A stretch of DNA of 64,000 nucleotides from an uncultured Acidobacteriota bacterium. GTDB lineage: Bacteria; Acidobacteriota; Terriglobia; Terriglobales; Acidobacteriaceae. Numbering within the stretch: the stretch's first letter is position 1; each line of letters begins with the position of its first letter. The notes beneath the pieces were generated by a model that was not told where the DNA came from, searched no databases, and saw only the letters and a list, made by a program, of their open reading frames with translations. Below are positions 26,512 to 58,238 of this stretch, in pieces. The stretch is taken from NCBI GenBank assembly GCA_963756315.1, contig CAVWNI010000001.1, positions 48,801 to 112,800 on the forward strand, written 5' to 3'. The translations under genes were made by a program, and so were the position numbers.

Positions 26512-27987
26512 CTACGGCTCGGTGCGTAGAAGCGTGACATTGGACATGGTTGGAAGGCGGACCTCGGCACGGCACCCGGGTGCATCGTCACGGTTGGCCA
26601 AAGTCAGCGTGCCTCCATGGGCTTCAATGATTTGCAGCGCAAGCACTAATCCAATTCCAGTGCCGCCGGGCTTGGTGGTATAAAACGGAACGAAAAGATT
26701 GGCTGGATTCGCCAGTCCAATTCCATTGTCTTCGACGCGAATCACGACGCTGTCGGGCCGCCTTTTTCCTACGACCGTTACATGCGCCGCCAGTTTATCC
26801 TGGTGAGCCTGCATGGCCGCGTCGGTCGCATTGCGAATCAGATTGATCAGCGCCTGTTCCAGCTGGGCCGCGTCGGCGTGAACATGGGTATCTTCCGCGA
26901 CATCGAGCGTGACTTTCAGCCTGGTCTCAAGATGGCAGACGCGCTCCAGTAGAGGAACCGCGGGAAACGTCGTCTTGACGGGGGCAGGCAGTTTGGCGAG
27001 CTGGCTGTACGCCTGCAGAAAACGGTTCAACGACTCCGCTCTCTCTTCGATGATCGCCAGCCCATGCTCCATGTCTACCGGATTTACGGCCCGATTCTGA
27101 GGATCGCTGGCGCCGGTCCAGCCAGTGGGCTGCGGAGCCGGGATCCATTGCACCCGCGAGCGAAGGCTGCTGGCGATCGATTTGATGGGTGTCAGAGAGT
27201 TATTGACCTCATGAGCCAGCACACGAATCAACCGCTGCCACGCCTGACGTTCCTGTTCCCGCAACACTCCGCTCACATCGGAAAGCAGCAACAGAGTGTG
27301 AGGCATACCGTTCTGATAAAACTTGCTGCGCCTCACCATCCATCGACCTTCTCGCCCATGCATGGCCAGGGAAACGACGCTGTTGTCAGGACAATCCAGA
27401 ATCTCCATCAGTCCGAGAGAATGCGCGCTTTGATGTAAAGTCGAATCTGCCGGAAGCTGAAGCATCTTCAGCGCCGCCGGATTGGTCAACTGCAAATCCG
27501 AGGCGGAATCGAAGGCGAAGACGGGCAGATCCATGGTTTCGACGACGCGCTCCAGCAGAGCAAACGTCTCCGATTCTCGATGCCGGCGCGTACGAAGATC
27601 GCCGGCCAGCTCATTGATCTGCGCGGCCAGGTCGCCGAGGGCATCTCCCTGTCCTATCTCGCGTGCGCGAAAGGAATACTCATTTTCCCGCAACGCCGAG
27701 ACAACGTTGGAGAGCGTTTGCAATGGTCGCACAATATGCTGGAACACCGCCGAACCCAGCGATGCCAGAAGGATGACAAGAACAGACAGGACACACAGCC
27801 AGATCAGGATGGAGGCATGCCACATATACAGGGCGACACACCCTAACGCGAGGGTTGGGAGCGCGAGCAGCACGAGCAATCCGGCCAGGCGAAGCTCAAA
27901 ACGAAGACGCGGAATTTTGAAGCCGATGGCAGGACGAGACGGCGGAGAAGAGGAATTTCGTTCACGATTCGCCGCATTAGATACCAT
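26512..27987 (-). CDS. Sensor histidine kinase with two closely spaced TM segments (no periplasmic domain), HAMP, PAS-like, HisKA and HATPase_c
   Basis: TM1 and TM2 are separated by about 3 residues (YMW-HAS-ILIW). H-box is LAHEVNNSLTPI. G-boxes are DNGIGL and GGTGIGL. The start overlaps the regulator stop by 11 nt. Confidence 0.9.
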   Translation of the reverse strand: MVSNAANRERNSSSPPSRPAIGFKIPRLRFELRLAGLLVLLALPTLALGCVALYMWHASILIWLCVLSVLVILLASLGSAVFQHIVRPLQTLSNVVSALRENEYSFRAREIGQGDALGDLAAQINELAGDLRTRRHRESETFALLERVVETMDLPVFAFDSASDLQLTNPAALKMLQLPADSTLHQSAHSLGLMEILDCPDNSVVSLAMHGREGRWMVRRSKFYQNGMPHTLLLLSDVSGVLREQERQAWQRLIRVLAHEVNNSLTPIKSIASSLRSRVQWIPAPQPTGWTGASDPQNRAVNPVDMEHGLAIIEERAESLNRFLQAYSQLAKLPAPVKTTFPAVPLLERVCHLETRLKVTLDVAEDTHVHADAAQLEQALINLIRNATDAAMQAHQDKLAAHVTVVGKRRPDSVVIRVEDNGIGLANPANLFVPFYTTKPGGTGIGLVLALQIIEAHGGTLTLANRDDAPGCRAEVRLPTMSNVTLLRTEP

Positions 27988-29374
27988 ACTTTTCCATCCG
28001 CCGGTACAACGCTCCTCGGCTCAAGCCCAGAGCGTCGGCGGCCTGGCTCACGTTGCGATCATGCCGAGCCAGAGCTTTACGGATCAGGATACTCTCGACG
28101 GCTTCCAGACTCATCTCGTCGATGTCATCGGCGGGCTTCGCGGTCTGCAGATTCAAATCGCCAGCCTGAATGCGGCGGCCGCGGCTCATGAGCACCGCGC
28201 GTTCCATGGAATGTTCGAGCTCCCTGACATTGCCGGGCCAGGAGTGTTCGAGTAGGGCGTGGAGCGCGGTGGCGTCGAGCCCCTCGATCTGCTTTCGATA
28301 ACGCGCGGCGTAGCGAGCCAGAAAGTGCGCCGCCAGCGCGGGGATATCCTCGCGTCTTTCTCTTAGCGGAGGCAGGTGAATTTCCACGGTATTCAGCCGA
28401 AACAGCAGATCGGGCCGAAAGCGGCCCTCCGCACACTCGTGGGTCAGATCGGCGTTGGTTGCAGAGAGTACCCGGACATCGATCCGGCGAACGCGCGACG
28501 AGCCGACCGGCTCCAGTTCTCCTGCCTCCAGAACGCGCAAAAGTTTTGCCTGCTGGCGGATCGGAACATTGGCGATTTCATCCAGAAATAAGGTTCCGCG
28601 ATCGGCCAGTTCAAAGCGACCAATGCGGTCGGCACGGGCGTCGGTAAACGCTCCTTTGACATGGCCGAACACTTCACTTTCAAACACGCCCTCTGAGAGC
28701 GCACCCGTATTCACGGCAATCCATGGGTGGTCGGCGCGCGCAGATAATGCGTGGAGGGTGTGCGCGACAATTTCTTTTCCGGTGCCGTGCTCCCCGGTGA
28801 TGAGCACATTGGCATCCGAGGGACCCACGCGGGTCATCGCATCGAGAACCGGCTGCATGGCCGGCGATTCAGCAATCATCTCCGGTCTGTCGGTGGCCCT
28901 TAGAAGCTGATTTTCCGCCTCCAGCAGCTGGGCGCGACGCAACGCTCGGTAGAGCGTCACCTGAGTCTGCAATACGGTCACCAAGCGGGCGTTTTCCCAA
29001 GGCTTGGTGATGAAGTCTCGAGCGCCGCGGCGCATCGCTTCGACCGCCAAGTCTACGCTGGCCCAGGCGGTCATCACAATGACAGGAAGCTGCGAATCGA
29101 TCTCCAGCACCTGCCGCAACAGTTCCAATCCTTCGTGGCCCGAGGTGGTGTCGCGGGTGTAGTTCAGGTCCATCAGCACGGCATCATACGGTCGATTGCG
29201 GAGTGCACGCAGCGCCGCCTCAGGAGAGCCGACGGTATCCACGTGGAAGCCCGCGGGCTGGAGCAATAATGTAAGCGCTTCAAGAATTTGCGGCTGGTCG
29301 TCGGCCGCAAGCACGCTGGGCAGCGTGCCTGCATCTACTTTCTTCCGATCGAGAAGCACGGGTTGTTCCGCCAT
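27977..29374 (-). CDS. Sigma-54-dependent response regulator (NtrC/AtoC family: REC, AAA+, Fis-type HTH)
   Basis: REC domain (LAADDQP...AVLMDLNY...KP). Walker A GEHGTGKE. The GAFTDA loop in ESEVFGHVKGAFTDA is diagnostic of sigma-54 activators. C-terminal HTH is NVSQAADALGLSRGALYRRMEKYGI. Confidence 0.93.
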   Translation of the reverse strand: MAEQPVLLDRKKVDAGTLPSVLAADDQPQILEALTLLLQPAGFHVDTVGSPEAALRALRNRPYDAVLMDLNYTRDTTSGHEGLELLRQVLEIDSQLPVIVMTAWASVDLAVEAMRRGARDFITKPWENARLVTVLQTQVTLYRALRRAQLLEAENQLLRATDRPEMIAESPAMQPVLDAMTRVGPSDANVLITGEHGTGKEIVAHTLHALSARADHPWIAVNTGALSEGVFESEVFGHVKGAFTDARADRIGRFELADRGTLFLDEIANVPIRQQAKLLRVLEAGELEPVGSSRVRRIDVRVLSATNADLTHECAEGRFRPDLLFRLNTVEIHLPPLRERREDIPALAAHFLARYAARYRKQIEGLDATALHALLEHSWPGNVRELEHSMERAVLMSRGRRIQAGDLNLQTAKPADDIDEMSLEAVESILIRKALARHDRNVSQAADALGLSRGALYRRMEKYGI

Positions 29375-29416
29375 GGCAGCCCCTCGCTTAGAGTATCGTG
29401 ATTCCGCCCCATACTC

Positions 29417-31420
29417 TTACGGTTGGCGAACCTCGCCGGTTTTTGCGACTACGATGGAGACGCCCATTCGCTCCAGCGTTTCTCCGGTGGCGCGGTCGAT
29501 ATCCACCTTGGCCTTTTCATCGGCTGTCTTTGCGGCCACGAGAGTGGATTCGGCAATAGCCAGATCGTGTTCCGCGACCAGCGCGTCGTAGGTGGACTTA
29601 GCACCGAGTTTCTGTTCCCGTTCGGTGATGTCGAATGTGCGTTGAGCCAAATCGCGGGCCTTCTGCACGGCATCGACACGGGCCTGGGCCTGTTGATATG
29701 CGAACTGAGAGTTGCGCACGTCGAAACGGATGCTCTTCTTCTGTTCTTCGAAGGAGATTTGTTTCTGCCGATATTCCAGCGAGGCGCGGAACTGATCTGC
29801 CTTGGCGACACGATTGCGAAGAGGGATCTGCAGCGTCATGCCAACTTGATATTCCGGCGAAGAGTAGTTGAAGGTGTTTCTGAACATGCCGCCGAATCCT
29901 GCGGGAAGATTGGTGACGCACTGGTCGCCCAGGCTGCAGTTCGGGTTTGCCGGTCCTGCGCTACCTGCGCCCTCATAGAAGCCATAGGCATTTAACGTAG
30001 GCAACAGCTCGTTGCGGATCGATTTGAGGCTCATCTGCGCCACCTGCATCGCAAGCTCGTCCTCGGAGACATCAGGCCGATTCTTTTCGGCCTCGGCGAT
30101 TAGATCGTCAATCGGCATGGAAGCGTTGGGGTCGGGTGGGCCGACGCGATCCAGAGGAATGACGGACATCTCATCGATTCCAGGATTGTCGCTCTTGGTG
30201 AGGGCGTTGATGATGAGCAGCTCATTCAAGCGGAGATTGGAACGCGAAATCGTAAGGTCACCCTCACTGGTAGCCACATCTGACTCGTCCTTGATAACCT
30301 GAATGGCCGGAATGGCCTGCAACTCAAGCTGCTTCTGGTCATCCTGAAGAGTCTTATGGGCAAAAGCGACCAGCCGCTCCTTGATCAGTTCGTCTTCATA
30401 GGCATCCACAAGGTCCCAGTAGATATTTTCGACCTGCGTGATTGTCGCAATCACCTGCGAACGAAAGGCCAGATCGGTGATCTGCATATTTTTTTTGGCG
30501 ATACGCATATAGCGCTCGTTAGTGGCGATACCAAAACCGGCGAGCAACTGTTGTGTGAGTTTCACCTGGAGATTCGAGTACAGCGTGGGATTGATGGCTT
30601 CGTAGGGGCTGTTATTAGCGAAACGCTGGCCCACATAGTTGATGTCCAGGCCTGTTCCCAGCGGAAAGTTCTGGGTGTAACTGGTCAGCGCTTCAATGGT
30701 GTTCTCCTTGAAAATGGGAACACCCACGGAGAAAGGGTTCGTTTCCTGGATTACGGTGTGATCCACGTAGCCCTGGAAAGTCACGTAGGGATCGAAGGAA
30801 GCGACCGCGGTTCCGCTGCCGAGGGTCGAAGTTACGATACCGCCTGCGCCGGCAGCCGCCGATCCTGAACTGGCGCCTGCACTGGAACTTCCTCCCGAGA
30901 AGCCGCCCTGCGTGGACGACTGCACGATTGCTGTATTGACACCACGCGCGCTGCCGCCCGCCTTTGTGCGTGCATAGTCGGTTTGCGCAATGGGGAAGTT
31001 ATAGCGGAAGTAGGCAAGATCCAGATTGTTCTCGATGGCAAGAGCGATCGCGTCACTCAACGAGATGTACAGCTTTCCATCACGGATCAAGCTTTGAAGG
31101 CGCGGCGAGTTGTTTAAGTCCAGCGGAGGAGCATCCGTGGGCCTATATGGCGACAATGGATTGCGCGAGTGCGGGAGGGGCACATGAAAAGGCTGTTGTG
31201 GAGCAAACGACAGCTGCTGCGTCTGTTGAATTTGTTGGGCCAGAGAAGGAGACGCGGCCGACTGAGGGTTCGCCGTGGGCGCGGGAGCCTGCGGCACAGC
31301 CGAAGTTGTTTGCGAATCGGCACCCGCTGCCGGCGGTACTGGCTGCGTGAAAGCCACCGTCCCGGTTGCGAATAAGCCTACAACCACGCCGATTGTCAGC
31401 AGGTCTTTCCAGTTGGACAT
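29417..31420 (-). CDS. TolC-family outer-membrane efflux duct with P/Q/A-rich N-terminal extension
   Basis: Start taken at MSNWKDLLTIGVVVGLFATGTVAF (signal-like), 11 nt after the ATPase stop. It has two TolC repeats (LSLSDAIALAIENNLDLA..., LRNRVAKADQFRA...AKVDIDRATG). The ORF track extends to 31501. Confidence 0.85.
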   Translation of the reverse strand: MSNWKDLLTIGVVVGLFATGTVAFTQPVPPAAGADSQTTSAVPQAPAPTANPQSAASPSLAQQIQQTQQLSFAPQQPFHVPLPHSRNPLSPYRPTDAPPLDLNNSPRLQSLIRDGKLYISLSDAIALAIENNLDLAYFRYNFPIAQTDYARTKAGGSARGVNTAIVQSSTQGGFSGGSSSAGASSGSAAAGAGGIVTSTLGSGTAVASFDPYVTFQGYVDHTVIQETNPFSVGVPIFKENTIEALTSYTQNFPLGTGLDINYVGQRFANNSPYEAINPTLYSNLQVKLTQQLLAGFGIATNERYMRIAKKNMQITDLAFRSQVIATITQVENIYWDLVDAYEDELIKERLVAFAHKTLQDDQKQLELQAIPAIQVIKDESDVATSEGDLTISRSNLRLNELLIINALTKSDNPGIDEMSVIPLDRVGPPDPNASMPIDDLIAEAEKNRPDVSEDELAMQVAQMSLKSIRNELLPTLNAYGFYEGAGSAGPANPNCSLGDQCVTNLPAGFGGMFRNTFNYSSPEYQVGMTLQIPLRNRVAKADQFRASLEYRQKQISFEEQKKSIRFDVRNSQFAYQQAQARVDAVQKARDLAQRTFDITEREQKLGAKSTYDALVAEHDLAIAESTLVAAKTADEKAKVDIDRATGETLERMGVSIVVAKTGEVRQP

Positions 31421-31431
31421 TCCTAGGCTCC

Positions 31432-32145
31432 TCACGCTTTTCCCTCTCCTGTCTGCTGCAACTCGGGGCGTGCGGAATCTGAAACGATCCATCCGTCGCA
31501 CAGCTGGACGGTACGCGTCCCATAGGTGGCATTCAGGTCGGAATGGGTGACCTGTACAATCGTGGTTCCTTGCTGGTTCAGTTCGCGAAATAGCTCCATG
31601 ATCTCCTTCGCCTGGGTGGAATGCAGATTGCCGGTCGGCTCATCCGCCAGCAACAATGCAGGCTTGTGGATGACGGCGCGGGCGATGCCGACCAGTTGCT
31701 GTTGGCCGCCTGAAAGCTGGGACGGGAACAGATCCTTCTTGGCGACCATACGGAAGCGATCCAGAACGTCCGCCACCATTGCCTGCCGCTCAGCGGACGG
31801 AATGTTCTTGTATGACAGGGGCAGGTCAATGTTCTCGGCCACCGTCAAATCATCCAGCAGATGATAGCTTTGGAAAACCATGCCCATGCGGCGGCGGGAG
31901 AGATCCGCGCGCTGCTTACGGCTCAGCTTGTGCACGGCCTGCTCTCCGAACCAATACTCCCCTTGCCAGTCGTCATCCAGCAGTCCAAGGATATTCAGAA
32001 GTGACGACTTGCCTGATCCCGAGGGGCCCATGATGGTGACAAACTCGCCTTCGAGGATTTCCATGTGGATACGTCGTAGCACCCACGATTGCCCGACGCC
32101 GGACTTGTAGCTTCGGTCGATATTTTTCAATTGAATCATTCTCAT
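31432..32145 (-). CDS. ABC transporter ATP-binding protein, MacB/LolD-type (ATPase 2)
   Basis: Walker A GPSGSGKS, Q-loop VFQSY, signature LSGGQQQ(L), Walker B LLLADEPT and H-loop VTHS. The start is ATG 32145 or 32139 (MIQLKNIDRSY), after AGGTGAG. Confidence 0.9.
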   Translation of the reverse strand: MRMIQLKNIDRSYKSGVGQSWVLRRIHMEILEGEFVTIMGPSGSGKSSLLNILGLLDDDWQGEYWFGEQAVHKLSRKQRADLSRRRMGMVFQSYHLLDDLTVAENIDLPLSYKNIPSAERQAMVADVLDRFRMVAKKDLFPSQLSGGQQQLVGIARAVIHKPALLLADEPTGNLHSTQAKEIMELFRELNQQGTTIVQVTHSDLNATYGTRTVQLCDGWIVSDSARPELQQTGEGKA

Positions 32146-32222
32146 CTCACCTGTAAAAACTTTGTTGCTGTATGAAATTGCGCGATGGCTCAGTGCCTCT
32201 GGGTACGCCGCTTGCATGGGAA

Positions 32223-34697
32223 TTATTCGGTTCGCAGCGCCTCCACCGGTTCAATCTTCGCGGCCCGCCGCGCGGGAAGATAACTGGCCAGCAGCCCGAC
32301 GCCAACCAGCAGGACGGACACCGCCAGCAGGGTGAGCGTGTCGTGCGGAGCGACGCCGTAGAGGAAACTGCGAACCAACTGTTCGGTGAAGTATGCCGCC
32401 AGAATTCCCAGCAAAAGGCCCGCGCCGAGTACTTTGGCGGCCTGTCGCAACACCATCCCAAGAATGTCTTCTCGCTGCGCGCCCAATGCAAGCCTTACGC
32501 CAATTTCCCGCGTGCGTTGACTGACACCGTAGCTCAGCAAACCGTAGAGCCCGGCTGCGGCAATCAGGACAGCGGCCATCGCGAATAGCCAAAGCAAACG
32601 CGCGGCGAGACGCTGGCTTCCCAGAACGGAGTCAATTTTTTCGGTCATGGTTTGCACGTTATTAACAACAAAAGTCGTATCCATCTTTGCCAAAACACGG
32701 CTCACGGTGGGAATAAGCGCTTGTGGCTGCTGTTTCGTGCGCACCACAATTTGCATGAAGGCGGTAAAAATCGGATAAAAATCGTCGCCGACCGGCACCT
32801 GGTAAATATCGATATCTACTTCGGGTTCCGGCCTCTGTCCAAGGGCATCCTGCGGCGTGTTCTCGACAACACCCACGACCGTCGCATCTTTCAACACGCT
32901 TTTCGTGGAGGGCCCAAGATCGAGGTTCAGCCTTTTTCCAAGCGGCTGATTTCCAAGATATTGGTGGGCAAATGCCTGGTTCACGACAACAACGGCAGTC
33001 GTTCCGATGCGATCCTCTTGATTAAACAAACGCCCTTCCAGCAAAGAGGTCTCGAGCGTGCGGTAGACGCCTGGAGTGACGGCATGCAGAACAACGCTAC
33101 GGTCGGACGCATTGGCCAAAGGTTCGCCAATGACAGCGAAGTTATCGCCCAAGTGCACATTATTTGTCAGCGGCGAAGCGGTCATCAATGCCGCCGATTC
33201 CACACCCGGAATATGCTGCACCCGATCCAGCAATGGCCTGTAGAAGATATCGCGAATATCCGCTTGGTCCTTCGCCGGCGAAAACATCATTGCGCTGCCG
33301 TGGTATGAAAAAAACTGCGCAGTGATAAGGTGTTGCGGATTAAACCCGAGAGGCACTTGGCGCAGCGCATACAGAGTCCGCAGCAGCAATCCTGCGGAGA
33401 CCAGCAGCACCAGCGACAATGCGAACTCGCCAATGATGAGTGCATTGCGCAGGCGTAGCTGTTTTACACCTGCTCCTCCCCCTCTGGACCCCTCGTGCAG
33501 GGCCTCCTGCGGATCGGCAGATGCCGCCTGAAAGGCTGGCGCTGTGCCGAAAATTACGGCAGATACGATGGAAAGCACAATGAGCAACAGAATGACGTGC
33601 CCATTGAGCGCAATGTCTGCCGACCTGCTTAAGCTTGCATCGATTGAACGGCGCAGCAGCGCAAGGCATCCGTAAGCTACGCCCAGACCAATCACTCCTC
33701 CGGAGACCCCCAGCAAGAGGCTTTCTGTAAGGAATTGCCGCACGATGCGTCCTATTGCCGCACCGAGCGCGGCACGAACCGCAATCTCTCGCCGCCGCGC
33801 TGCCATCCGCGTCAGCATCAGTCCTGCAATGTTGGCACAGGCGATCAACCACACCAGTAAAACCGCTCCCAGTAAAGCCAGTAATGCGGGGCGGACCGGC
33901 CCGACCAGGGCATCAAGATAACTCTTCACTACCACGCTTTTCGGCAGATCCTCATTTTCATAGCGTTGTGCAATGTTTCCCTGAATGCCATTCAATTCTG
34001 CTGTCGCGGAAGCAACCGTCACGCCGGTCCGTAGCCGTCCGATCGCGCGCAGAAATGCGGAGCCGCGGTTCTCCATGCTTGGCGTCCGAGTCAAAACTGT
34101 CCAGACAATCGGACCATCGTCGTTGATGCCGACATAGAAGCGGGGCGGCATCACTCCAACTACCTGATATGGGTTGGATCCGAGTTGGATGGTCTGGCCG
34201 AGAATGTCTTTGTTGCCATGAAAGTTGTTGCGCCAGACGTAATAGCTGAGGACAACAACTCCGGCATTCTCTCCTTCGGTTCCTTGCGGGAGAAACGTTC
34301 TCCCTAACAAAGGTCTCGCCTGCAACATAGAAAAAAAGTTGGGGCTGGTTTCCGTATTGATGGAAAACTGAGCGCTGCCATCGGGTTTCTTCAAATCAAA
34401 GAAACTCTGTGTGTACCACGCGATGTCCTGAAACGATTTGCTCTGCTGGCGCCAATCCCGCAGATCGGGCAATGACGAGGCGCTGAGGCCTCCGCTATCG
34501 CTCGCCTCACCAAGCACCACAATCTGCGACGAATGCGGAACGGGTAAGGGTCGCAGCAGCACGGCGTCGACCACCGTAAACATTGCGGCGCTAATACCGA
34601 TACCGAGCGCCAACGTCAACACTGCGGTGAAGGTAAAGCCGGGCGCTTTTCGCAACTGCCGGATAGCGTAACGAAGATCCTGCCATGTTGACTGCAT
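32223..34697 (-). CDS. ADOP-type duplicated FtsX/MacB-like permease P6 (last of the six-gene array)
   Basis: [22 protein letters not shown]... ends in EPVEALRTE. ATG 34697 follows TAGGTGcatcga and gives the family-typical N-terminal length. An in-frame GTG at 34706 abuts the P5 stop. Confidence 0.9.
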   Translation of the reverse strand: MQSTWQDLRYAIRQLRKAPGFTFTAVLTLALGIGISAAMFTVVDAVLLRPLPVPHSSQIVVLGEASDSGGLSASSLPDLRDWRQQSKSFQDIAWYTQSFFDLKKPDGSAQFSINTETSPNFFSMLQARPLLGRTFLPQGTEGENAGVVVLSYYVWRNNFHGNKDILGQTIQLGSNPYQVVGVMPPRFYVGINDDGPIVWTVLTRTPSMENRGSAFLRAIGRLRTGVTVASATAELNGIQGNIAQRYENEDLPKSVVVKSYLDALVGPVRPALLALLGAVLLVWLIACANIAGLMLTRMAARRREIAVRAALGAAIGRIVRQFLTESLLLGVSGGVIGLGVAYGCLALLRRSIDASLSRSADIALNGHVILLLIVLSIVSAVIFGTAPAFQAASADPQEALHEGSRGGGAGVKQLRLRNALIIGEFALSLVLLVSAGLLLRTLYALRQVPLGFNPQHLITAQFFSYHGSAMMFSPAKDQADIRDIFYRPLLDRVQHIPGVESAALMTASPLTNNVHLGDNFAVIGEPLANASDRSVVLHAVTPGVYRTLETSLLEGRLFNQEDRIGTTAVVVVNQAFAHQYLGNQPLGKRLNLDLGPSTKSVLKDATVVGVVENTPQDALGQRPEPEVDIDIYQVPVGDDFYPIFTAFMQIVVRTKQQPQALIPTVSRVLAKMDTTFVVNNVQTMTEKIDSVLGSQRLAARLLWLFAMAAVLIAAAGLYGLLSYGVSQRTREIGVRLALGAQREDILGMVLRQAAKVLGAGLLLGILAAYFTEQLVRSFLYGVAPHDTLTLLAVSVLLVGVGLLASYLPARRAAKIEPVEALRTE

Positions 34698-34706
34698 TCG
34701 ATGCAC

Positions 34707-37208: not shown

Positions 37209-37219
37209 CGTCTCTTCCT

Positions 37220-39700: not shown

Positions 39701-39713
39701 GGATTCGTTTCCC

Positions 39714-42143: not shown

Positions 42144-42154
42144 GACTTGGCTCT

Positions 42155-44659
42155 TTATTCAGAACGCAACGCTTGTATCGGATCGACCGAAGCAGCCCGC
42201 CGGGCTGGGATCCAGCACGCGACCAGCGCAATCAGGAACAAAATAGCCAACCCGGCAATAAAGGTGACAGGATCGGAGGGAGAAACCTGGTAGAGCTGCG
42301 AGGCAAGCCAGTGGGTGGCGATGACTGAAACGACGGCACCAAGAAACACGCCGGAACTAGCCAGTTTCAAACCCTCCATCAATACCAGGCGGCTGACTGC
42401 ATTGCGTTGCGCGCCCAGCGCCATGCGCACGCCAATTTCCCGGGTGCGCTGACGCACGGTGTAGGCCAGCACACCGCCAATGCCGGCCGCCGCCAGCAGC
42501 AGCGCGATCGCGGCGAAGATGCCAAGGACGAAGCTGTTGAACCGCTGCGGCGCAACGTCGGTGTCGACCATCTCCGTCATGGTGTGGATGTCAGTCACCG
42601 GCAGAGAGGGATCGATGGAATGAACGGTCGACACCAGCAGGTTCTGCATCGATGCCGGGTCTTGCTGGGTGCGGACTGCTAAGTACAAATTCCGCAGTTC
42701 GTCGACATTCGGATCCACGAAGAAATTCAGGTCCGCTTGCCCCATACTCCCCGTCTCTTGCAAATATGGCGTATAGCTTTCCGGGGCCGCGGCCTTGTCC
42801 ATCCCATTGGCCCTGACACCCGCGACCACGCCGACCACGGTTAGCCACGGCACCTTGGATTGAATGAGACCGTGCTTGATGCGATGACCCAGCGGGTCCA
42901 TACCGGGAAAATAGCGGTTCGCAAATTCCTGACTGACGATGACGACGGGCTGCGAACCTTCTTTATCCTGGGGCGTGAATAACCGACCGCGGATCAGCCG
43001 AATGCCCATGGCGGGGAAATAGTCGCCCATGACCCAGGTGTGCTGAACATTGACCGATACCGGCGGACGACCGGGCAATGGCTCGACGGTGAATGTGTCC
43101 TGCTCGCTGATGTGCGTTGGGGGACTGGTCGTCAGTCCAGCGTCGCGTACGCCGGGCAGTGGCGTCGTCCTGGTCAACAATTCGCTATAGAAGTTCTTGA
43201 TCTGTTCCGGCGTGGAATACGCCGCGAGCGGCAGGGTCATCGACATCGTCAAGACATGATCCGGCCGGAAACCAGGATTGGTTTCTGTCAAACGCTGGAA
43301 GCTGCGCAACAACAGACCCGCAGTGACCAGCAACACCATGGCGAGGGCAAACTGCGACGTTACCAGCAGGCCCAGAGTGCGGTGGCGACTGCGACCGGCC
43401 ATCCCGGAGCGGCCACCTTCATACAGGCTGTCGTTGGGATCGACGCGCAACGCGCGCAGCGCCGGAATCAGTCCTGTCAGCAAGGCCGTGAGCAGACAAA
43501 TGCCAAAGCAGAATGCGAGCACGCCGCCATTAATGTTGATGGACCCAGCACGCGGAAGATCGACGGGTGCGGCCGTAACCAGCAGATGCATGGCGCCATA
43601 GGCCAATGGCAATCCGAGCAGGCCGCCCGCAATCGCAAGCAGAAGGCTTTCTGAGAGCAACTGCGAAAAGACCCGGGCGCGCGGCGCACCGACGGCAATG
43701 CGCATCGCCAATTCGCGTCGGCGTCCGGCGGTTCTGGCAAGCAGAAGATTGGCCACGTCCACGCAGGCGATCAGCAAGACCAGCAGCACGCTGAACTGCA
43801 ACAGCATCAGGCGGCTGCGCACGGTTCCGACGACCTGGTCGTTATAGGGAGCCGCGCTTGCGCCCACCTTGAACAGCGGATTGCCGTGCAGCGCCGGCGG
43901 GTAGAGCTTGTACGACTGCTGGACCAGGCCGTAGACTTCCGCACTCGCCTGAGGAATGGTGACACCGGGTTTCAGGCGCGCGATGACGCTGTAATTGAAT
44001 TCGTCGCCGAAGTCATGTAACTGCCCGGGAGTGAAATGCATGGGAAGATACATTGCCGCCGGGGTGTTATTGTTGCTCTCTCCGTGGTTTGGAAAAACCA
44101 GCGAGCGCCCCATGACTCCGATAACCGTGTAGGGCTTTCTGTTCAGAAAAATGGTTTGTCCGATGACACCCGGATTGGACGCAAAATGTTGCCTCCAGAA
44201 CGCGTTGTTCAACACCACAACCGGTGCGCCCGTGGAATCTTCCTGTTCTGTAAACGTACGGCCCAACTCCGGCGTAACGCCGAGGACAGAAAACAACGAC
44301 GCGCCGACCCGCTCCCCGTGCACGCGGGCCGGATCACCGCTTCCGGAAAGCTCATAATCTTCGTCACGGTAAGCCGCCATGCCGCTGAAACGGGTAGCTT
44401 GTCGCCGCACGTAGGTATAGTCGGGGGCGGAAAACGTGATTTGTTGAAAGCCGAGGCCCGGAAGAGACTCGAATAGCGTAACCAGGGATTGCGGATTTTT
44501 GTATGGGAGCGAACGCAGCAACACACCGTCCACGATGCTGTAGATCGCGGTCGACGCCCCGATCCCGATTGCCAGCGTGCAGATGGCGAGAGCAGCGAAT
44601 CCGGGCGCCTTGCGCAACTGCCGGAGCGCATAGCGAAGATCATTGAGAAAATTGGTCAT
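42155..44659 (-). CDS. ADOP-type duplicated FtsX/MacB-like permease P2
   Basis: MTNFLNDLRYALRQLRKAPGFA... ends in DPIQALRSE. 834 aa, with GGAGG in the 11-nt spacer upstream. Confidence 0.92.
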   Translation of the reverse strand: MTNFLNDLRYALRQLRKAPGFAALAICTLAIGIGASTAIYSIVDGVLLRSLPYKNPQSLVTLFESLPGLGFQQITFSAPDYTYVRRQATRFSGMAAYRDEDYELSGSGDPARVHGERVGASLFSVLGVTPELGRTFTEQEDSTGAPVVVLNNAFWRQHFASNPGVIGQTIFLNRKPYTVIGVMGRSLVFPNHGESNNNTPAAMYLPMHFTPGQLHDFGDEFNYSVIARLKPGVTIPQASAEVYGLVQQSYKLYPPALHGNPLFKVGASAAPYNDQVVGTVRSRLMLLQFSVLLVLLIACVDVANLLLARTAGRRRELAMRIAVGAPRARVFSQLLSESLLLAIAGGLLGLPLAYGAMHLLVTAAPVDLPRAGSININGGVLAFCFGICLLTALLTGLIPALRALRVDPNDSLYEGGRSGMAGRSRHRTLGLLVTSQFALAMVLLVTAGLLLRSFQRLTETNPGFRPDHVLTMSMTLPLAAYSTPEQIKNFYSELLTRTTPLPGVRDAGLTTSPPTHISEQDTFTVEPLPGRPPVSVNVQHTWVMGDYFPAMGIRLIRGRLFTPQDKEGSQPVVIVSQEFANRYFPGMDPLGHRIKHGLIQSKVPWLTVVGVVAGVRANGMDKAAAPESYTPYLQETGSMGQADLNFFVDPNVDELRNLYLAVRTQQDPASMQNLLVSTVHSIDPSLPVTDIHTMTEMVDTDVAPQRFNSFVLGIFAAIALLLAAAGIGGVLAYTVRQRTREIGVRMALGAQRNAVSRLVLMEGLKLASSGVFLGAVVSVIATHWLASQLYQVSPSDPVTFIAGLAILFLIALVACWIPARRAASVDPIQALRSE

Positions 44660-44670
44660 CGTCCGCCTCC

Positions 44671-47199
44671 TTATTCAGAACGTAATGCCTGCATGGGATC
44701 GACCGAGGCCGCGCGGCGCGCGGGCAAAAGACAGGCCGCCGCCCCGGCAACCAGTAGCGACGCAGCCGCGGCGGCCGCAATCCACGGATTGAATGCGTTC
44801 ACCTGAAATAGAAGGCTTCCGATCAGTCGTGCAAAACCAAGCGCAACCGCGACCCCGATGACAGTCCCTGCGATCACTGGACCCAGACCTTCGCGAAGGA
44901 CCTGGGAATAAATGTTGGCGCGCTGTGCCCCCAGCGCCATGCGCAGGCCAATTTCCTGCCGCCGCTGCGCCACGGAATATGTGACCACGCCATACACACC
45001 CAGCCCGGCAAGCAGCCAGGCGCTGACAGCAAATAGCAGGAGCAAATCCATTTCAAACCGACGGGTCGCGACGGAGTCGGCCACTACACCGCCCAGCATA
45101 CGAACGGTGGGTACGGAAACCGCGGGATCTACGCTCCAGATGGTTTTGCGGATCGCGCTGGCCATCTCCGCCGGGTCTTGCCGGGTGCGAACTAAAAATC
45201 CTGCGGACGCATCCGCGCGATACCAGTACGGGACATACACCATCATGGGATCGGGCTTGGCGAGCGTTACGGTCCTGGCGTCACCCACGACGCCGATGAC
45301 GGTAAATTCCGTCAATTTGGAATCCGCAGGATCGCCCCGATCGAACCGCTGACCGATTGGGTTCCTGCCCGGCCAAAGCGCTTTAGCTGTGAGTTGGGAG
45401 ACGAGTGCGTCGTTCTTTCCCTCGTCGCTGCCACTCAAAAAGCGACCGGCAATCAGCGGCAAATGGATGGTCTCAAAATATCCAGGGCTGACCCAGCGAA
45501 ACTGCGCCAATGGCAACTGCATAATTGCCCGTGCATCGCCTGGAAGGCGAACCCAGTCGCCCCAATCATTACCGGTGAGCGGCAACACGCTTACGATCGC
45601 CGCGTGCTCCACGCCAGGGAGGCGCGTGAGCCGGTCGAGCGCCCTTTTGTAAAAGGCAGCATGATCCTGCTGGTCGGGGTAATACTTATAGGGCAGATAG
45701 ATCTGTACGGTCAGCACCCGCGCAGTGTCAAAGCCGCGACCGATATGTAAGAGCCGGAACAAGCTGGTCGTCAATAAACCCGTGATAAGCACCAACGCCA
45801 CGCTGATCAAGACCTCCGCCGCAACCAACGTCTTGCGCAACCGCTTGCCTGCGGGCGATTCACTGGCGGAACGGGAATCGCTGCGCAATGCCGCCTGCGG
45901 CTGGGTATGCCAACTGATCCACGCTGGCGCGACGCCCGCGAGCAGGGTGGCCGCCCCAGCCAGCAGGACTGCAAAGCCGGCACCTGCCCAGTCGATGTGC
46001 AGGTTTCCGCGGAAGTTCAGCGCGGCAGGCAAAAAGCGCTGAAGAATTGGAACGGTCACGACAGCCAATAGAATTCCCAGCGCGCCGCCAATGCCGGCAA
46101 GAACGCCGGCCTCCCTGATTGCAACCCGCGCCAGGTCGGAGCGACTGGCCCCAAGTGCCGCTGCGACCGCCAACTCCTGCCGTCGGCCAACGGCGCGAGC
46201 CAGCAATAGATTTGCGATGTTGATGCAGCCGACGAACAGCAATCCAGCAACCGCGCCTAACAAGATACCGAGCGACTTGCCGTTGTTGCCCACAAGATAT
46301 TGCTGGAATGGCGTGAACACAGCGGAGAGTGTCCCATGTTCATCCGCAGGCAGGCTGGCCGCGATGGTGTGCTGCAGCGCATTGATTTCCGCGTTTGCCT
46401 GAGCAACCGAGACGCCGGGCTTCAACCGCGCCAGTCCAAAGTAATTGAAGTCTCCCATGGCTTCCTGCAGCCGGTCTTTTGAAAACGCCATCGGCACAAT
46501 CGCTTCGGTCGATTCTGACCGACTGGTGACATCTTGACTGGCGATCGTATGTATATTCGGCAAACGAAACGATGGCGGCATGACGCCGATCACGGCGTAA
46601 GGATAGCCATCGAGCGTAATGGTCTTGCCAAGGATGCCGGGATCACTGTGAAACTGCCGCTTCCATAAGTCATGCATCAGTACGACGACACGCTCATGCC
46701 CGGGTTGATCTTCCTGTGCGGTAAAAGTGCGGCCAAGCTGTGGGTTTGCATCGAGGACGGAAAAGATGGCGGAGGTGGCGCTCAACTCGCCCACCTGGAG
46801 CGGATGCCCGCCACCGCCAAGGGGAACGTTGCCCTGCTGCATGACAGCCATCGACTGCAGGCTGTGGCTATGCTGCTGCCAGTTCATGAAATGGTTGGCG
46901 TTCATGGGCAGCGTGGGGTAAAGGTCCCGCAACTCGGCGACCTGCTCTTCCATCACCACCAGCTGCTCCGGATGCGGATACGGCAGCGGCTTCTTCAGCA
47001 CATCGTAGACCAGGGTAAAGATTGCAGTGGTCGCGCCAATCCCCAGCGCCAGCGTCAGCACAGCGGTCGCCGTAAATCCGGGCGACTTGCGCAGCTGCCG
47101 CCATGCATAGCGAAGATCGGCCCAGACCCCCTCACTGCAGCAATTCCCTTTCCGCGGCCAATTTGCGACGCAGATCCTCTTCGGATACGACCTGGCCAT
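44671..47199 (-). CDS. ADOP-type duplicated FtsX/MacB-like permease P1 (start problematic)
   Basis: ...[19 protein letters not shown]... ends in DPMQALRSE. The only canonical in-frame start near the 5' end is ATG 47199, which overlaps ATPase 1 by 68 nt. See the finding on the G5 tract at 47127-47131. Confidence 0.75.
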   Translation of the reverse strand: MARSYPKRICVANWPRKGNCCSEGVWADLRYAWRQLRKSPGFTATAVLTLALGIGATTAIFTLVYDVLKKPLPYPHPEQLVVMEEQVAELRDLYPTLPMNANHFMNWQQHSHSLQSMAVMQQGNVPLGGGGHPLQVGELSATSAIFSVLDANPQLGRTFTAQEDQPGHERVVVLMHDLWKRQFHSDPGILGKTITLDGYPYAVIGVMPPSFRLPNIHTIASQDVTSRSESTEAIVPMAFSKDRLQEAMGDFNYFGLARLKPGVSVAQANAEINALQHTIAASLPADEHGTLSAVFTPFQQYLVGNNGKSLGILLGAVAGLLFVGCINIANLLLARAVGRRQELAVAAALGASRSDLARVAIREAGVLAGIGGALGILLAVVTVPILQRFLPAALNFRGNLHIDWAGAGFAVLLAGAATLLAGVAPAWISWHTQPQAALRSDSRSASESPAGKRLRKTLVAAEVLISVALVLITGLLTTSLFRLLHIGRGFDTARVLTVQIYLPYKYYPDQQDHAAFYKRALDRLTRLPGVEHAAIVSVLPLTGNDWGDWVRLPGDARAIMQLPLAQFRWVSPGYFETIHLPLIAGRFLSGSDEGKNDALVSQLTAKALWPGRNPIGQRFDRGDPADSKLTEFTVIGVVGDARTVTLAKPDPMMVYVPYWYRADASAGFLVRTRQDPAEMASAIRKTIWSVDPAVSVPTVRMLGGVVADSVATRRFEMDLLLLFAVSAWLLAGLGVYGVVTYSVAQRRQEIGLRMALGAQRANIYSQVLREGLGPVIAGTVIGVAVALGFARLIGSLLFQVNAFNPWIAAAAAASLLVAGAAACLLPARRAASVDPMQALRSE

Positions 47200-47866
47200 C
47201 GAACAAATGGACTTCGCGGTCTGCCAGCTTGGCGAAGCGCGGATCGTGGGTGACCATGCAGATGGTCGCGCCATCTTTGTGGAGTTCTTTCAGCAACTCC
47301 ATCACCGCTTCGCCATTGCGAGAGTCGAGGTTTCCAGTCGGCTCGTCGGCCAGCAGGATGGAAGGTGACCCGGCCAGGGCGCGAGCCACGGCGACGCGCT
47401 GCTGCTGGCCGCCGGAGAGCTGCGAAGGATAATGTCGCAGCCGATGCGCCATACCCACGCGGCTCAATGCTTCATCCACCCGCCGCTTACGCTCGACGGA
47501 GGGCATTCCGGAGCGATAGGTCAGCGGCAGTTCGACATTTTCATATACGGTCAGGTCGCCGATCAGGTTGAAACTCTGGAAGATGAATCCAATCTCCTGA
47601 TTGCGAATGCGCGAACGCTCTGCAAAGCTGAGATTCTCTACCGGGCGCGTATTCAGCAGGTAGCTGCCGCCACTCGGCGTATCCAACAGTCCCAGGATAG
47701 AGAGCAGGGTGGACTTGCCGCAGCCTGAAGGTCCCGAGATGGCAACGTATTCTCCGCGGTCGATGTTGAGGTGAATGCCCGCCAATGCGTGAGTTTCAAT
47801 CTCATCGGTGTAGAAAACTTTGGTGAGCGCTTCTATATGAATCAGCGATTGCTCGGTTGCTGCCAT
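47132..47866 (-). CDS. ABC transporter ATP-binding protein, MacB/LolD-type (ATPase 1)
   Basis: MAATEQSLIHIEALTKVFY... with Walker A GPSGCGKS, signature LSGGQQQRVAVARAL, Walker B LLADEPT and H-loop VTHD. GAGAGGA RBS is present. The ORF track extends to 47935. Confidence 0.9.
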   Translation of the reverse strand: MAATEQSLIHIEALTKVFYTDEIETHALAGIHLNIDRGEYVAISGPSGCGKSTLLSILGLLDTPSGGSYLLNTRPVENLSFAERSRIRNQEIGFIFQSFNLIGDLTVYENVELPLTYRSGMPSVERKRRVDEALSRVGMAHRLRHYPSQLSGGQQQRVAVARALAGSPSILLADEPTGNLDSRNGEAVMELLKELHKDGATICMVTHDPRFAKLADREVHLFDGQVVSEEDLRRKLAAERELLQ

Positions 47867-47952
47867 GCGTGGGTCCTCTCTCGAACGAATGAACTGGATG
47901 CACTTCTGTATGTATCTACGTAATCTTTGAGACAAAGGTTCTCAGTCGGCTA

Positions 47953-49212
47953 TTAATCCAGCCGAATGCGGTCAACATTGTCCCAACGCGACATGTCGGA
48001 AAGGATAACGGTATCGCCCTCTTTCAGGCCGCCGAGGATTTGAATTTCATTCACTGACGCTCGACCGACTCTTACCGGTACGCGCGTCGCATAATTGCCG
48101 CTGGGGTCCAGCTTGAACAGGCTGATCGTGGAGTTTTCATTTCCGAACGCTGGGCGTCCGACATGCAAGACATCGTGCAACCGCTGCAGATCAACGGTTC
48201 CGTCCACGCTCAAGTCGGGCCGAGCTCCTTCGGGCAACGGTCCATCCAACTGTACGTCGACGGTAACGGTTCCGTTCACGACGGCCGGATTAATTCGCGT
48301 GACCGAACCCGGAACGATTCCGTTGTGGGTATCAATTTCGGCGGGCTGACCGATCTCGACATCATGGGCCTGGGTCTCGGCGATCTCCAACTGCGCCTTC
48401 AATTGGTTGGGCTGGATAATCTGGGCCAGCTCAGTCCCTACCGGAACATGCTGCCCGACCTGCAGGGGCATCTGCACCAGCACTCCCTCGATTCCAGCGC
48501 GAACGTTTAGCGCATCGACTTCGCGCTGCAACAGCTGTGCAAGCGCGCTCGCCTGCTGCACCTTCGCCTTTTGCACGGCGAGTTGGGTCTCGAGAGCTTT
48601 CTGGTTGATGGTGATCTCTTGCTTCTCCAGGTCTTCGCGCGTCGTCAACGCATCGGCTTTACCCTGGGAATCGCTGTACGACAACCCGCTAATCACACCA
48701 AGCTTGTACAGGGCTTGATCGGTCCGCGCTTGCAGTTGCGCCTGCTGGTACTGTGCATGAATGTCGGCAGCGGTGGCACGCCGGTCCATCAAGCTACTTT
48801 CCAGTGATACCTGGGTATTGTGGTAATCGGCCTGGGCCTCATTCAGCTGCAGGGCGGCATCCTGCGCCTCCTGCATCAGCTGTTGATTCGTCAATCGCAG
48901 GATGACCGTATCCGGATGCACCAGGGCGCCGGGCAGCTTGAAAATACTTACGACTGTGCCGTCGGTCTCTGCGGGAATGGAGCGGATGCGATCTTCGCGC
49001 GGCACCAGGGTTCCAAGACCGCGCACCTGGCGAATCATGTTGCCGCGTTTTACCGTGTCAGTCCAGACCGTGTTCCGGTCGACCGTAGGGGCAGCCGGCT
49101 TGAGCCGCATCACTAAGAGTGTGACCGCAGCTAGCAGAACCAGTCCAATCGCGGACCAGAGAACCTGGCGGCGAAGTTTTCGTTTTTTCAAATCGGGGCG
49201 CGCGATATCCAT
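47953..49212 (-). CDS. HlyD/MacA-type periplasmic adaptor (membrane fusion protein)
   Basis: N-terminus is basic then TM (KKRKLRRQVLWSAIGLVLLAAV). It has a biotinyl-lipoyl-like region, long coiled-coil heptads (QLNEAQADYHNTQ...LQREVDALN) and a beta-barrel C-terminus. Start is at ATG 49212, and a TTG 21 nt downstream is also possible. Confidence 0.85.
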   Translation of the reverse strand: MDIARPDLKKRKLRRQVLWSAIGLVLLAAVTLLVMRLKPAAPTVDRNTVWTDTVKRGNMIRQVRGLGTLVPREDRIRSIPAETDGTVVSIFKLPGALVHPDTVILRLTNQQLMQEAQDAALQLNEAQADYHNTQVSLESSLMDRRATAADIHAQYQQAQLQARTDQALYKLGVISGLSYSDSQGKADALTTREDLEKQEITINQKALETQLAVQKAKVQQASALAQLLQREVDALNVRAGIEGVLVQMPLQVGQHVPVGTELAQIIQPNQLKAQLEIAETQAHDVEIGQPAEIDTHNGIVPGSVTRINPAVVNGTVTVDVQLDGPLPEGARPDLSVDGTVDLQRLHDVLHVGRPAFGNENSTISLFKLDPSGNYATRVPVRVGRASVNEIQILGGLKEGDTVILSDMSRWDNVDRIRLD

Positions 49213-49225
49213 TATTGATAGACCT

Positions 49226-49241
49226 AGCATGTAGCGAGCCA
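49226..49241 (-). promoter_or_regulatory. Candidate sigma-54 (-24/-12) promoter TGGCTCG-N4-ATGCT for the pump cluster
   Basis: Minus strand reads ttTGGCTCGCTACATGCTaggtctatcaataATG. GG and GC have the canonical spacing. It has 2-3 mismatches to TGGCACG-N4-TTGCW. Confidence 0.35.
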
Positions 49242-49451: not shown

Positions 49452-49796
49452 ATGTTTAGGGAAGAAAACTCGGAAGCAGGCGACCTGATCCAAGGCACGC
49501 TGGAAATGCTCGTCTTAAAGTCGCTGGCGCGCGGTCCCCTGCATGGATATGCGGTAGCCGAGTGGATCCATCAAACATCGCAGCAACTGCTCAAGGTAGA
49601 GGAGGGTGCACTCTATCCGGCATTACACAGGCTGGAACTTCGCGGACTTCTCCAGGCGAAATGGGGGGCATCGGAAAACAATCGGCGTGCCAAGTTCTAT
49701 CAACTCACGACTGAGGGCAAGAAGCGTCTGAATGCCGAATCGCAACGCTGGGCGCGGCTGTCGGCGGCGGTCGCATTTGTTATGCAGGCATCCTGA
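49452..49796 (+). CDS. PadR-family transcriptional regulator (pair 2)
   Basis: GDLIQGTLEMLVLKSLARGPLHGYAVAEWIHQ...GALYPALHRLELRGLLQAKWGASENNRRAKFYQLTTEG. Confidence 0.9.
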   Translation: MFREENSEAGDLIQGTLEMLVLKSLARGPLHGYAVAEWIHQTSQQLLKVEEGALYPALHRLELRGLLQAKWGASENNRRAKFYQLTTEGKKRLNAESQRWARLSAAVAFVMQAS

Positions 49797-49807
49797 GGTG
49801 ACTTGCC

Positions 49808-55269: not shown

Positions 55270-55271
55270 GG

Positions 55272-55643
55272 TCACGCCTCCTCGCCGCTTGGCTCCAGGC
55301 CGCCGTCGAGAATCAATCCCATGGCCCGTGCCAGCCGCCGCCACTCGCTGGTTTTCTCTACGAGATGATCGCGCCCTTTGGGAGTTAACGAGTAAAAGCG
55401 CGCCTTACGGTTGTTCTCGCTCACACCCCAGTTCGCCCGAATCCACTTCTTGTCCTCCAGCCGCTGCAAAGCGAGGTAGAGAGAGCCGTGGTCGACAAAA
55501 AATACCTCTTCTGACTGGCGTTGAATGGATCGCGCCACACCTTGTCCATGGCAGGGGCCCAGTACAAGCGTCTTGAGAATCAGCAGGTCCAGCGTCCCCT
55601 GCAACAATGCGATGCGTTCGTCTTTACTCTCTCGGGTAGTCAT
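55272..55643 (-). CDS. PadR-family transcriptional regulator (pair 3)
   Basis: MTTRESKDERIALLQGTLDLLILKTLVLGPCHGQGVARSIQ...GSLYLALQRLEDKKWIRANWGVSENNRKARFYSLTPKG. The ORF track starts at an upstream TTG (55652). Confidence 0.9.
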   Translation of the reverse strand: MTTRESKDERIALLQGTLDLLILKTLVLGPCHGQGVARSIQRQSEEVFFVDHGSLYLALQRLEDKKWIRANWGVSENNRKARFYSLTPKGRDHLVEKTSEWRRLARAMGLILDGGLEPSGEEA

Positions 55644-58234: not shown

Positions 58235-58238
58235 CCGG

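Follow-up and report, generated by a model that had tools for sequence, protein, structure and literature searches.

Two ATPase genes, an adaptor and an outer-membrane duct frame a variable array of duplicated FtsX-type permeases in Acidobacteriaceae: a candidate shared chassis for exchangeable export modules

ADOP permeases form one of the largest paralogous families in soil Acidobacteria and are annotated as 'orphan' since no ATPase partner is evident. Here we describe a gene cluster on contig CAVWNI010000001.1 of an uncultured member of the Acidobacteriaceae in which six ADOP genes lie between two ATP-binding cassette (ABC) ATPase genes. The window is the whole stretch of 64,000 nucleotides (nt) that was analysed, and all positions are those of the window. 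The cluster occupies an unbroken series of 12 open reading frames (ORFs) on the minus strand (26512-49269, the genes proper covering 26512-49212). In the order of transcription these encode an adaptor, ATPase1, the permeases P1-P6, ATPase2, a duct, a sigma-54 response regulator and a histidine kinase. Gene identities were assigned by Pfam and NCBIfam profile searches, and the domain profiles agree with the functions that an initial annotation, made from the letters of the DNA, had given to the 12 consecutive genes. The features of the cluster are as follows:

49226..49241, minus strand: candidate sigma-54 (-24/-12) promoter, TGGCTCGCTACATGCT, called by pattern match and positional conservation across loci
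47953..49212, minus strand: adaptor, a HlyD/MacA-type membrane fusion protein of 419 amino acids (aa) with an N-terminal transmembrane (TM) anchor (Pfam HlyD_3 and HlyD_D23; NCBIfam RND_mfp, 97.9 bits, cutoff 94.9)
47132..47866, minus strand: ATPase1, a canonical MacB/LolD-type nucleotide-binding domain (NBD), 244 aa (ABC_tran, 118 bits)
44671..47199, minus strand: ADOP permease P1, start uncertain (TIGR03434, 848 bits)
42155..44659, minus strand: ADOP permease P2, 834 aa (TIGR03434, 925 bits; AlphaFold2 model)
39714..42143, minus strand: ADOP permease P3, 809 aa (TIGR03434, 832 bits)
37220..39700, minus strand: ADOP permease P4, 826 aa, orthogroup g6 (TIGR03434, 890 bits)
34707..37208, minus strand: ADOP permease P5, 833 aa (TIGR03434, 758 bits)
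32223..34697, minus strand: ADOP permease P6, 824 aa, orthogroup g1 (TIGR03434, 832 bits)
31432..32145, minus strand: ATPase2, a divergent MacB-type NBD, 237 aa (ABC_tran, 107 bits)
29417..31420, minus strand: duct, a TolC/OEP outer-membrane factor (667 aa) that has a signal peptide and is of low complexity in its N-terminal region (Pfam OEP in two stretches, 99 bits)
27977..29374, minus strand: NtrC-family sigma-54-dependent response regulator with REC, AAA+/Sigma54_activat and HTH_8 domains (Pfam, NCBIfam)
26512..27987, minus strand: histidine kinase with two TM helices (HATPase_c; sequence reading)

The gaps between successive permease genes measure 11, 11, 13, 11 and 9 nt and are purine-rich, including TAAggaggcggacgATG and TAGaggaagagacgATG; these 9-13-nt junctions carry ribosome-binding sites. 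The ATPase2-duct gap is 11 nt and the duct-regulator gap 42 nt, the regulator and kinase genes overlap by 11 nt, and the larger gaps are those between the adaptor and ATPase1 (86 nt) and between P6 and ATPase2 (77 nt). All junction lengths quoted in the initial annotation proved exact, as did its purine-rich ribosome-binding sites between the permeases. Within the array, a sigma-70 promoter scan found 2 promoter-like sites against 6.9 expected and a terminator scan 25 terminator-like sites against 19.4 expected, totals that are at or below chance level; none of either kind falls in a gap. The scan, which is itself weak evidence, gives no sign of internal transcription units, and the GC content shows no anomaly across the cluster. 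We infer that the twelve genes are co-transcribed as one operon.

All six array permeases score 758-925 bits on the TIGR03434 model ('ADOP family duplicated permease'), above its cutoff of 622.3, and every one of them, at 809-842 aa, contains two MacB_PCD and two FtsX domains (Pfam). The N-terminal and C-terminal halves of P2 are 25% identical (E = 1e-8), which bears out the internal duplication of the MacB/FtsX unit proposed earlier. Pairwise identity is 31-43% among P1-P6 and 26-35% between these and three ADOPs encoded elsewhere in the window. Because they are only 31-43% identical to each other, the six are, judged by their divergence, old paralogs; recent amplification, the case that an all-against-all alignment had been proposed to check, and collapse or artefact of the array in assembly are both ruled out by this figure. 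The six have diverged without stop codons, and all the ORFs are full length with invariant coupling-helix residues.

The start of P1 needs separate mention. No start codon adjoins the ATPase1 stop, the sole in-frame ATGs are at 47199 and 47274, and a start at 47199 gives a 68-nt overlap with ATPase1. A GTG that overlaps the ATPase1 stop (caGTGAggggg, 47127-47135, minus strand) is 1 nt out of the P1 frame at a run of five G, and the closest relative, locus L004 (see below), has an in-frame overlap at the ATPase1-permease junction (caATGAcc). The 5' end of P1 is either a real 68-nt overlap or a 1-nt homopolymer indel.

Eight TM helices per permease are indicated by hydropathy and by an AlphaFold2 model of P2 that was built from the nine ADOPs of the window (predicted local distance difference test 78.6, predicted template modelling score 0.65). 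The model has two beta-rich periplasmic domains, a C-terminal helix and short coupling helices after TM2 and TM6. In a Foldseek search of the PDB the top full-length match was YbbP (9ge6_A, E = 1e-19), followed by half-length matches to MacB, Spr0695, LolC/E, BceB and HrtB; by sequence, the best solved relative is MacB of MacAB-TolC (5nik_J, E = 1.5e-19). The eight-TM model and the YbbP and MacB fold matches support the earlier suggestion that one polypeptide corresponds to the membrane part of a MacB dimer. The fused permeases listed in the MacB-family review all come with two linking helices and one NBD as a separate protein (PMC5985334), and both YbbP and BceB have 10 TM helices with two linking helices (PMC5985334, PMC12646458). 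The E. coli YbbAP(-TesA) system (PDB 9ge6; PMC12646458) resembles the cluster in its single-chain pseudo-dimeric permease, two periplasmic domains, two coupling helices and separate ATPase. However, YbbP has 10 TM helices (4+2+4) whereas the ADOPs have 8 (a direct 4+4 fusion), and YbbAP has no adaptor, no duct, one permease gene and two copies of one ATPase species, YbbA. Membership in the YbbAP family was rejected on the TM count and on the YbbP model NF041854, which scores 19-24 bits on P1-P3 (cutoff 999) and does not appear among the matches of P4-P6.

Conservation is unevenly distributed along the chain. Across 78 ADOPs, entropy is lowest in the cytoplasmic segments (1.3-1.7) and highest in the two periplasmic domains (2.55-2.59), and the most conserved segments are the N-terminal helix, both coupling-helix loops and the C-terminal PARRAAxxDPMxALRxE. 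The separation of TM and coupling parts from periplasmic parts that the initial annotation had called for thus finds the periplasmic domains most variable and the cytoplasmic docking elements most conserved. The pattern is consistent with a docking side that stays constant and a periplasmic side that has diversified, without proving a common partner.

ATPase1 and ATPase2 are 44% identical to each other. Both match the MacB/LolD/MJ0796 class best, with ATPase1 the more canonical; its best PDB matches are 5xu1_A, MJ0796, MacB and LolD, and its top NCBIfam matches, DarD and LolD, are both below cutoff. A comparison of 12 ATPase1 orthologs with 32 ATPase2 orthologs gives 32 positions that are fixed differently between the two. 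The signature helix reads LSGGQQQRVAVARA in ATPase1 and LSGGQQQLVGIARA in ATPase2 (where the signature is QQQL), the D-loop reads GNLD and GNLH, and the H-loop THD and THS, respectively. Common to both are Walker A, the glutamate of Walker B and the histidine of the H-loop. By these fixed differences and retained residues the two are distinct conserved paralogs, both probably catalytic. An exact-protein look-up found no record of ATPase2 or P2 in public assemblies. In ABC proteins generally, the D-loop is part of the NBD dimer interface, and the two ATPases may form a heterodimer on one permease.

The candidate promoter lies a short way upstream of the adaptor gene. The initial annotation had placed the adaptor start at 49241; an ortholog alignment moves it to ATG 49212 (MDIARP...), which is kept in all orthologs. 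Between this ATG and the C of the GC element of the candidate promoter there are 14 nt. Of 61 orthologous loci, 42 have GG-N10-GC at an identical offset, against 0 of 61 in a control window. Many of the copies in orthologous loci are near-perfect TTGGCACGGCAAGTGCT, and several of the remaining loci have the GG-N10-GC element farther upstream. Since a window-wide search for TGGC-N8-TGC returned 25 matches against 18.9 expected, which is not above chance, the promoter call rests on positional conservation across loci. The usual sigma-54 geometry puts the transcript start about 3 nt before the adaptor ATG. The adaptor mRNA would be nearly leaderless and sigma-54-dependent in at least 42 loci, and the absence of a Shine-Dalgarno sequence before the ATG fits a nearly leaderless mRNA.

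The response regulator has a REC, sigma-54 AAA+ and HTH_8 architecture (Pfam), and its loop reads GAFTDA, not the canonical GAFTGA, in the window and in 35 of 35 orthologs. On a reading of its sequence the kinase has two TM helices about 3 residues apart and almost no periplasmic loop, as in kinases of the intramembrane-sensing type. The cluster's own two-component system presumably drives the -24/-12 promoter before the adaptor gene. The combination is like BceAB-BceS in that a type VII fused permease accompanies an intramembrane-sensing kinase with almost no extracellular loop, and BceB is among the fold matches; unlike the cluster, BceB has 10 TM helices and one extracellular domain, and BceR is OmpR-type and not sigma-54 dependent. 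The layout of the kinase recalls BceS, which senses via a type VII ABC permease, and by analogy the kinase may monitor the pump itself.

The organisation of the cluster is not peculiar to this window. When species-representative genomes were scanned with ATPase2, loci L001-L080 were recovered, and those numbered L001-L032 encode orthologs with 59-91% identity. Scanning metagenomes with ATPase1 added L081-L160. About 110 loci, L001-L032 and L081-L160, were annotated through BLASTP comparison with the proteins of the window. Throughout Acidobacteriaceae, and in metagenomes from soil and peat, the same frame recurs: adaptor-ATPase1-[n x ADOP]-ATPase2-duct-regulator-kinase. It is a common type of locus in Acidobacteriaceae, and the window is one large example. 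The survey of conservation and copy number that the initial annotation had proposed therefore finds a widespread frame with n from 0 to at least 6. Where both ATPase genes are visible, or where the array fills the entire 10-kb flank, the number of ADOPs between the ATPases is distributed as follows (the n >= 4 figure is a lower bound per locus, limited by the flank length of 10 kb):

n = 0, both ATPases visible: 19 loci
n = 1, both ATPases visible: 6 loci
n = 2, both ATPases visible: 5 loci
n = 3, both ATPases visible: 4 loci
n at least 4, array filling the entire 10-kb flank: 22 loci
n = 6: this window

An adaptor gene precedes ATPase1 in nearly all loci and a duct gene follows ATPase2 in the Acidobacteriaceae loci; a cognate HlyD-type adaptor and TolC-family duct are syntenic in most of the related loci. 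The two ATPase genes co-occur, with their fixed paralog-specific differences, and are direct neighbours in the 19 loci with n = 0. One such locus, L015, reads adaptor-ATPase1-ATPase2-duct-regulator-kinase with zero permeases within 7.8 kb upstream; the frame is preceded there by tmk, a GGDEF-EAL gene and a Wzz-type kinase gene. In L028, from Bryobacteraceae, adaptor-ATPase1-ATPase2 is followed by unrelated metabolic genes, with no permease downstream. In some more distant loci (L149, L151, L155 and L157, and L032 from Saprospiraceae) the ATPase genes are adjacent and the ADOPs come after them.

The frame and the array differ in how well they are conserved. Identity to the window proteins is 73-94% for ATPase1 and 57-91% for ATPase2, and mostly 30-45% for array permeases compared with any permease of the window. 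When permeases are clustered into orthogroups at 55% identity or more, the arrays are mosaic even between genomes with ATPases about 90% identical: the window reads [-,-,-,g6,-,g1], L004 reads [g7,g6,g1], and L002 and L031 read [?,g12,g7,g1], while the order in L018 and L019 differs from that in L020 and L025. In some genomes the members of orthogroups g6 and g2 are part of the array, and in L026 they are found outside the operon; g6, the orthogroup of P4, is in the array in L004. Orthogroup g1, that of P6, adjoins ATPase2 in the closest relatives, with orthologs 70-72% identical in L002, L003, L004 and L031. Among the array permeases of the related loci, 93 of 102 are tightly packed and lack the N-terminal prefix domain described below.

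The duct at the same position is 45-46% identical in some relatives and 78-84% in others (L001 and L004 versus L002, L003 and L031), despite an ATPase2 about 90% identical in all five; the duct gene seems to be replaced, as the permeases are.

The fast turnover of arrays between relatives, and the defective or unusual 5' end of P1, could be taken to mean that the array is evolutionary debris, in which one or two copies function and the rest are redundant or decaying duplicates. We consider this very improbable. None of the six ORFs is truncated; each scores well above the family cutoff, retains the invariant coupling-helix residues and has diverged as far as it has without acquiring stop codons. 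Moreover, other genomes contain intact orthologs of P4 and P6, about 70% identical, and arrays of at least four permeases recur in 22 loci.

From the gene content, the fold, the conservation of the frame, the variable copy number, the paralogy of the ATPases and the promoter motif we infer, with a probability of roughly 55%, that the cluster encodes a sigma-54-controlled tripartite pump of the type VII ABC class, in which a constant chassis is shared by exchangeable single-chain permeases. Two distinct cytoplasmic ATPases would make up the chassis together with the TolC-like duct and the adaptor with its membrane anchor. Each ADOP would provide the whole transmembrane part, that is, two fused 4-TM MacB units, each with a periplasmic domain and a coupling helix; two NBDs would bind to it, in the simplest case one copy each of ATPase1 and ATPase2. 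The binding of ATP would be relayed mechanically to the periplasmic domains, as in MacB mechanotransmission (PMC5985334), and these would drive a substrate from the periplasm or the outer leaflet into the adaptor and duct. Since the permeases differ mainly in their periplasmic domains, the six may be alternative specificity modules that compete for one chassis, and the NtrC-type regulator and the intramembrane-sensing kinase would activate the -24/-12 promoter. The initial annotation had likewise proposed one chassis with six alternative modules: the conserved frame, with permeases that vary in number and content, agrees with it, while the physical sharing of the chassis, the engagement of all six permeases with the adaptor, the duct and the ATPase pair, and the nature of the substrates are predictions.

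Several observations weigh against this proposal, and some of them favour other ways of using the same genes. Every characterised type VII ABC system has a single ATPase species (PMC5985334, PMC12646458), including YbbAP, with 2 YbbA per YbbP (PMC12646458), and the heterodimeric LolCDE. Furthermore, ATPase1 occurs without ATPase2 within 10 kb in L122, L139, L141, L145, L147, L152 and L159, and because of such loci a heterodimer would not be universal. The cluster might then encode conventional pumps side by side, with ATPase1 homodimers serving some permeases and ATPase2 homodimers serving others, and with no heterodimer and no combinatorial sharing of both ATPases; that some loci have ATPase1 alone with the adaptor, and that both ATPases keep all catalytic motifs, would suit such an arrangement. 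Against it stand the 19 loci in which the ATPase genes are adjacent with no permease between them, the co-occurrence of the pair across families, the single adaptor and the single duct. Moreover, no subset of permeases tracks either ATPase, the arrays being mosaic, and the fixed differences in the D-loop and signature helix suit an asymmetric dimer. We regard side-by-side pumps as unlikely, though the least unlikely of the alternatives.

The periplasmic domains, which would need to touch the adaptor, are the most variable parts of the permeases. Their high divergence would also be expected if most permeases used the ATPases and bypassed the adaptor and duct, working as extractors or mechanotransducers in the manner of Lol, FtsEX or YbbAP (periplasmic partners might, for example, receive lipids, lipoproteins or peptides from them), with one or a few forming a tripartite pump. 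The outputs of type VII ABC systems are very diverse (PMC5985334, PMC12646458), the best full-length fold match, YbbP, is not a component of an efflux pump, and the PadR-linked ADOPs are encoded without an adaptor. On the other hand, the array permeases lie within the adaptor/duct frame with coupling-type junctions, the adaptor and duct genes keep their places beside the ATPase genes in nearly all loci and in the Acidobacteriaceae loci, respectively, and the cluster has no genes for periplasmic partners, all of which makes this explanation improbable.

Two further points count against a shared chassis. The 5' end of P1 is anomalous, and the conservation of the coupling helices was dismissed as proof of a shared partner because RxxExxxRxALGA and the C-terminal PARRAxxxDPxxALR are general motifs of FtsX/MacB proteins.

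Among characterised systems the closest are MacAB-TolC, YbbAP, LolCDE, DarBCD and BceAB-S. The cluster shares with MacAB-TolC (PDB 5nik) the FtsX/MacB 4-TM unit with its coupling helix, its Porter/Sabre-like periplasmic domain and its C-terminal minor helix. In both, the permease is accompanied by an adaptor of HlyD type, a duct of the TolC family and an NBD of MacB-type sequence; a tripartite assembly is predicted here from these genes. The fold has the periplasmic domain between TM1 and TM2, and the NBDs have intact Walker A, Walker B, signature and H-loop, as expected of MacB-type systems. However, MacB is a homodimer and carries its NBD in one chain with the permease, whereas the cluster has two-unit single-chain permeases, separate NBDs from two genes and six permease genes per operon.

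The darobactin exporter DarBCD (PMC8442675) also has a long permease, a membrane fusion protein and a separate ATPase. The DarB profile (777 positions) is weakly similar to P1, P4 and P5, and Dar models are the top NCBIfam match for both ATPases and a partial match for the adaptor. Unlike the cluster, DarBCD has one ATPase and one permease, lies in a biosynthetic cluster for a ribosomally synthesised and post-translationally modified peptide, and has no dedicated duct gene. Membership was rejected, since NF038007, NF038010 and NF038008 are all below cutoff (245 and 238 versus 375; 83 versus 450; at most 31 versus 700).

The sharing of an energising module has precedents among importers. In the ECF transporters of group II, many membrane specificity components share one ATPase module encoded elsewhere. 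Similarly, multitask ATPases such as MsmX are shared among type I importers (PMC7658222). The likeness lies in the logic of sharing; these are importers of unrelated fold, and the comparison is an analogy and not a claim of membership. No case of a shared ATPase module for type VII or tripartite exporters was found in the literature searched. If the sharing proposed here is true, it extends the shared-energiser principle from importers to tripartite exporters and would add the first two-ATPase type VII system. For soil bacteria that are abundant but hard to study, it would also point to a cassette-like diversification of envelope export or of detoxification. The conserved locus itself, with two ATPases, an adaptor, a duct and 0 to at least 6 permeases, offers a testable answer to the question of the energy source and exit route of ADOPs, and as by-products the analysis provides a well-defined element of a sigma-54 regulon and loci that are candidates for structural work.

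The literature on ADOPs and on MacB/FtsX proteins in Acidobacteria yielded only one tandem ADOP cluster with ATP-binding transporter genes, that of Psychroflexus torquis, which has about ten tandem ADOP paralogs whose proteins are abundant and highly expressed (PMC3914696, which credits Ward et al. 2009 with the first ADOP observation). No description of the two-ATPase adaptor/duct/sigma-54 organisation and its copy-number variation was found in the literature searched. The view of the initial annotation that the arrangement is uncharacterised holds to that extent; it is not a one-off, and the P. torquis cluster with its ATP-binding genes had already been noted.

Orthologs of ATPase2 that are 59-70% identical occur in Bacteroidota, namely in L029 (Algoriphagus ornithinivorans DSM 15282, a cultured strain), L032 (Saprospiraceae), L030 and L036. 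In L029 and L032 the ATPase2 gene is beside tandem ADOP-like permeases, matching the published Psychroflexus cluster, which hints at transfer between phyla.

In addition to the six array copies, the window encodes three further ADOPs, which the initial annotation had left out of its count. Each lies in a unit with a PadR gene:

49452..52516, plus strand: PadR (49452-49799; TIGR03433, 143.7 bits) and prefix-bearing ADOP (49808-52516; TIGR03434, 803 bits)
52606..55652, minus strand: second PadR (55272-55652) and prefix-bearing ADOP (52606-55269), from profile matches
16685..19761, plus strand: third PadR (16685-17116) and prefix-bearing ADOP (17116-19761), from profile matches

These three score 803-853 bits on TIGR03434, each comes directly after its TIGR03433 PadR gene, and they share the invariant residues of the array copies. 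They fit the 'orphan' context, with a PadR gene upstream and no ATPase gene adjacent, whereas the six array copies, with no PadR gene and two flanking ATPase genes, do not. The PadR-linked copies also carry an N-terminal extension of about 60-80 aa that P1-P6 lack; the model 'permease prefix domain 1' (NF038403) matches it in two copies, and in the third it looks similar by eye. Array copies and PadR-ADOP 'orphan' units (TIGR03434/TIGR03433) thus belong to the same permease family, but the former have neither the PadR partner nor the prefix, and are embedded between two ATPase genes in an adaptor/duct/sigma-54 frame. The prefix may possibly contact PadR or an ATPase.

Because there are permease-less loci, because n varies and because orthogroups move in and out of the operon, the chassis may also work in trans, and the sharing would then extend to permeases encoded outside the array. 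PadR-regulated ADOPs encoded elsewhere would probably use the same ATPases, which offers an explanation for the 'orphan' PadR-ADOP units; the unit at 49452-52516 is a candidate trans-client. A more tentative extension, which we put forward with less than even confidence, is that a dedicated asymmetric ATPase1-ATPase2 heterodimer with one adaptor and one duct serves as a genome-wide chassis for dozens of single-chain ADOPs, both those of the fast-turnover cassette array between the ATPase genes and those of PadR-controlled units elsewhere. If so, it would explain why the ADOP family looks 'orphan', and it would be the first case of a shared module of the ECF or MsmX kind in type VII or tripartite ABC exporters.

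The ADOP genes at 49808-52516 and 52606-55269 are convergent, and the 49452-52516 unit is divergent from the adaptor gene. The flanks at 20024-26063 and 57137-63055, both on the plus strand, are of housekeeping character: downstream are the large and small subunits of glutamate synthase, and on the upstream side there are Mrp-type antiporter subunits together with a cbb3-type oxidase fusion.

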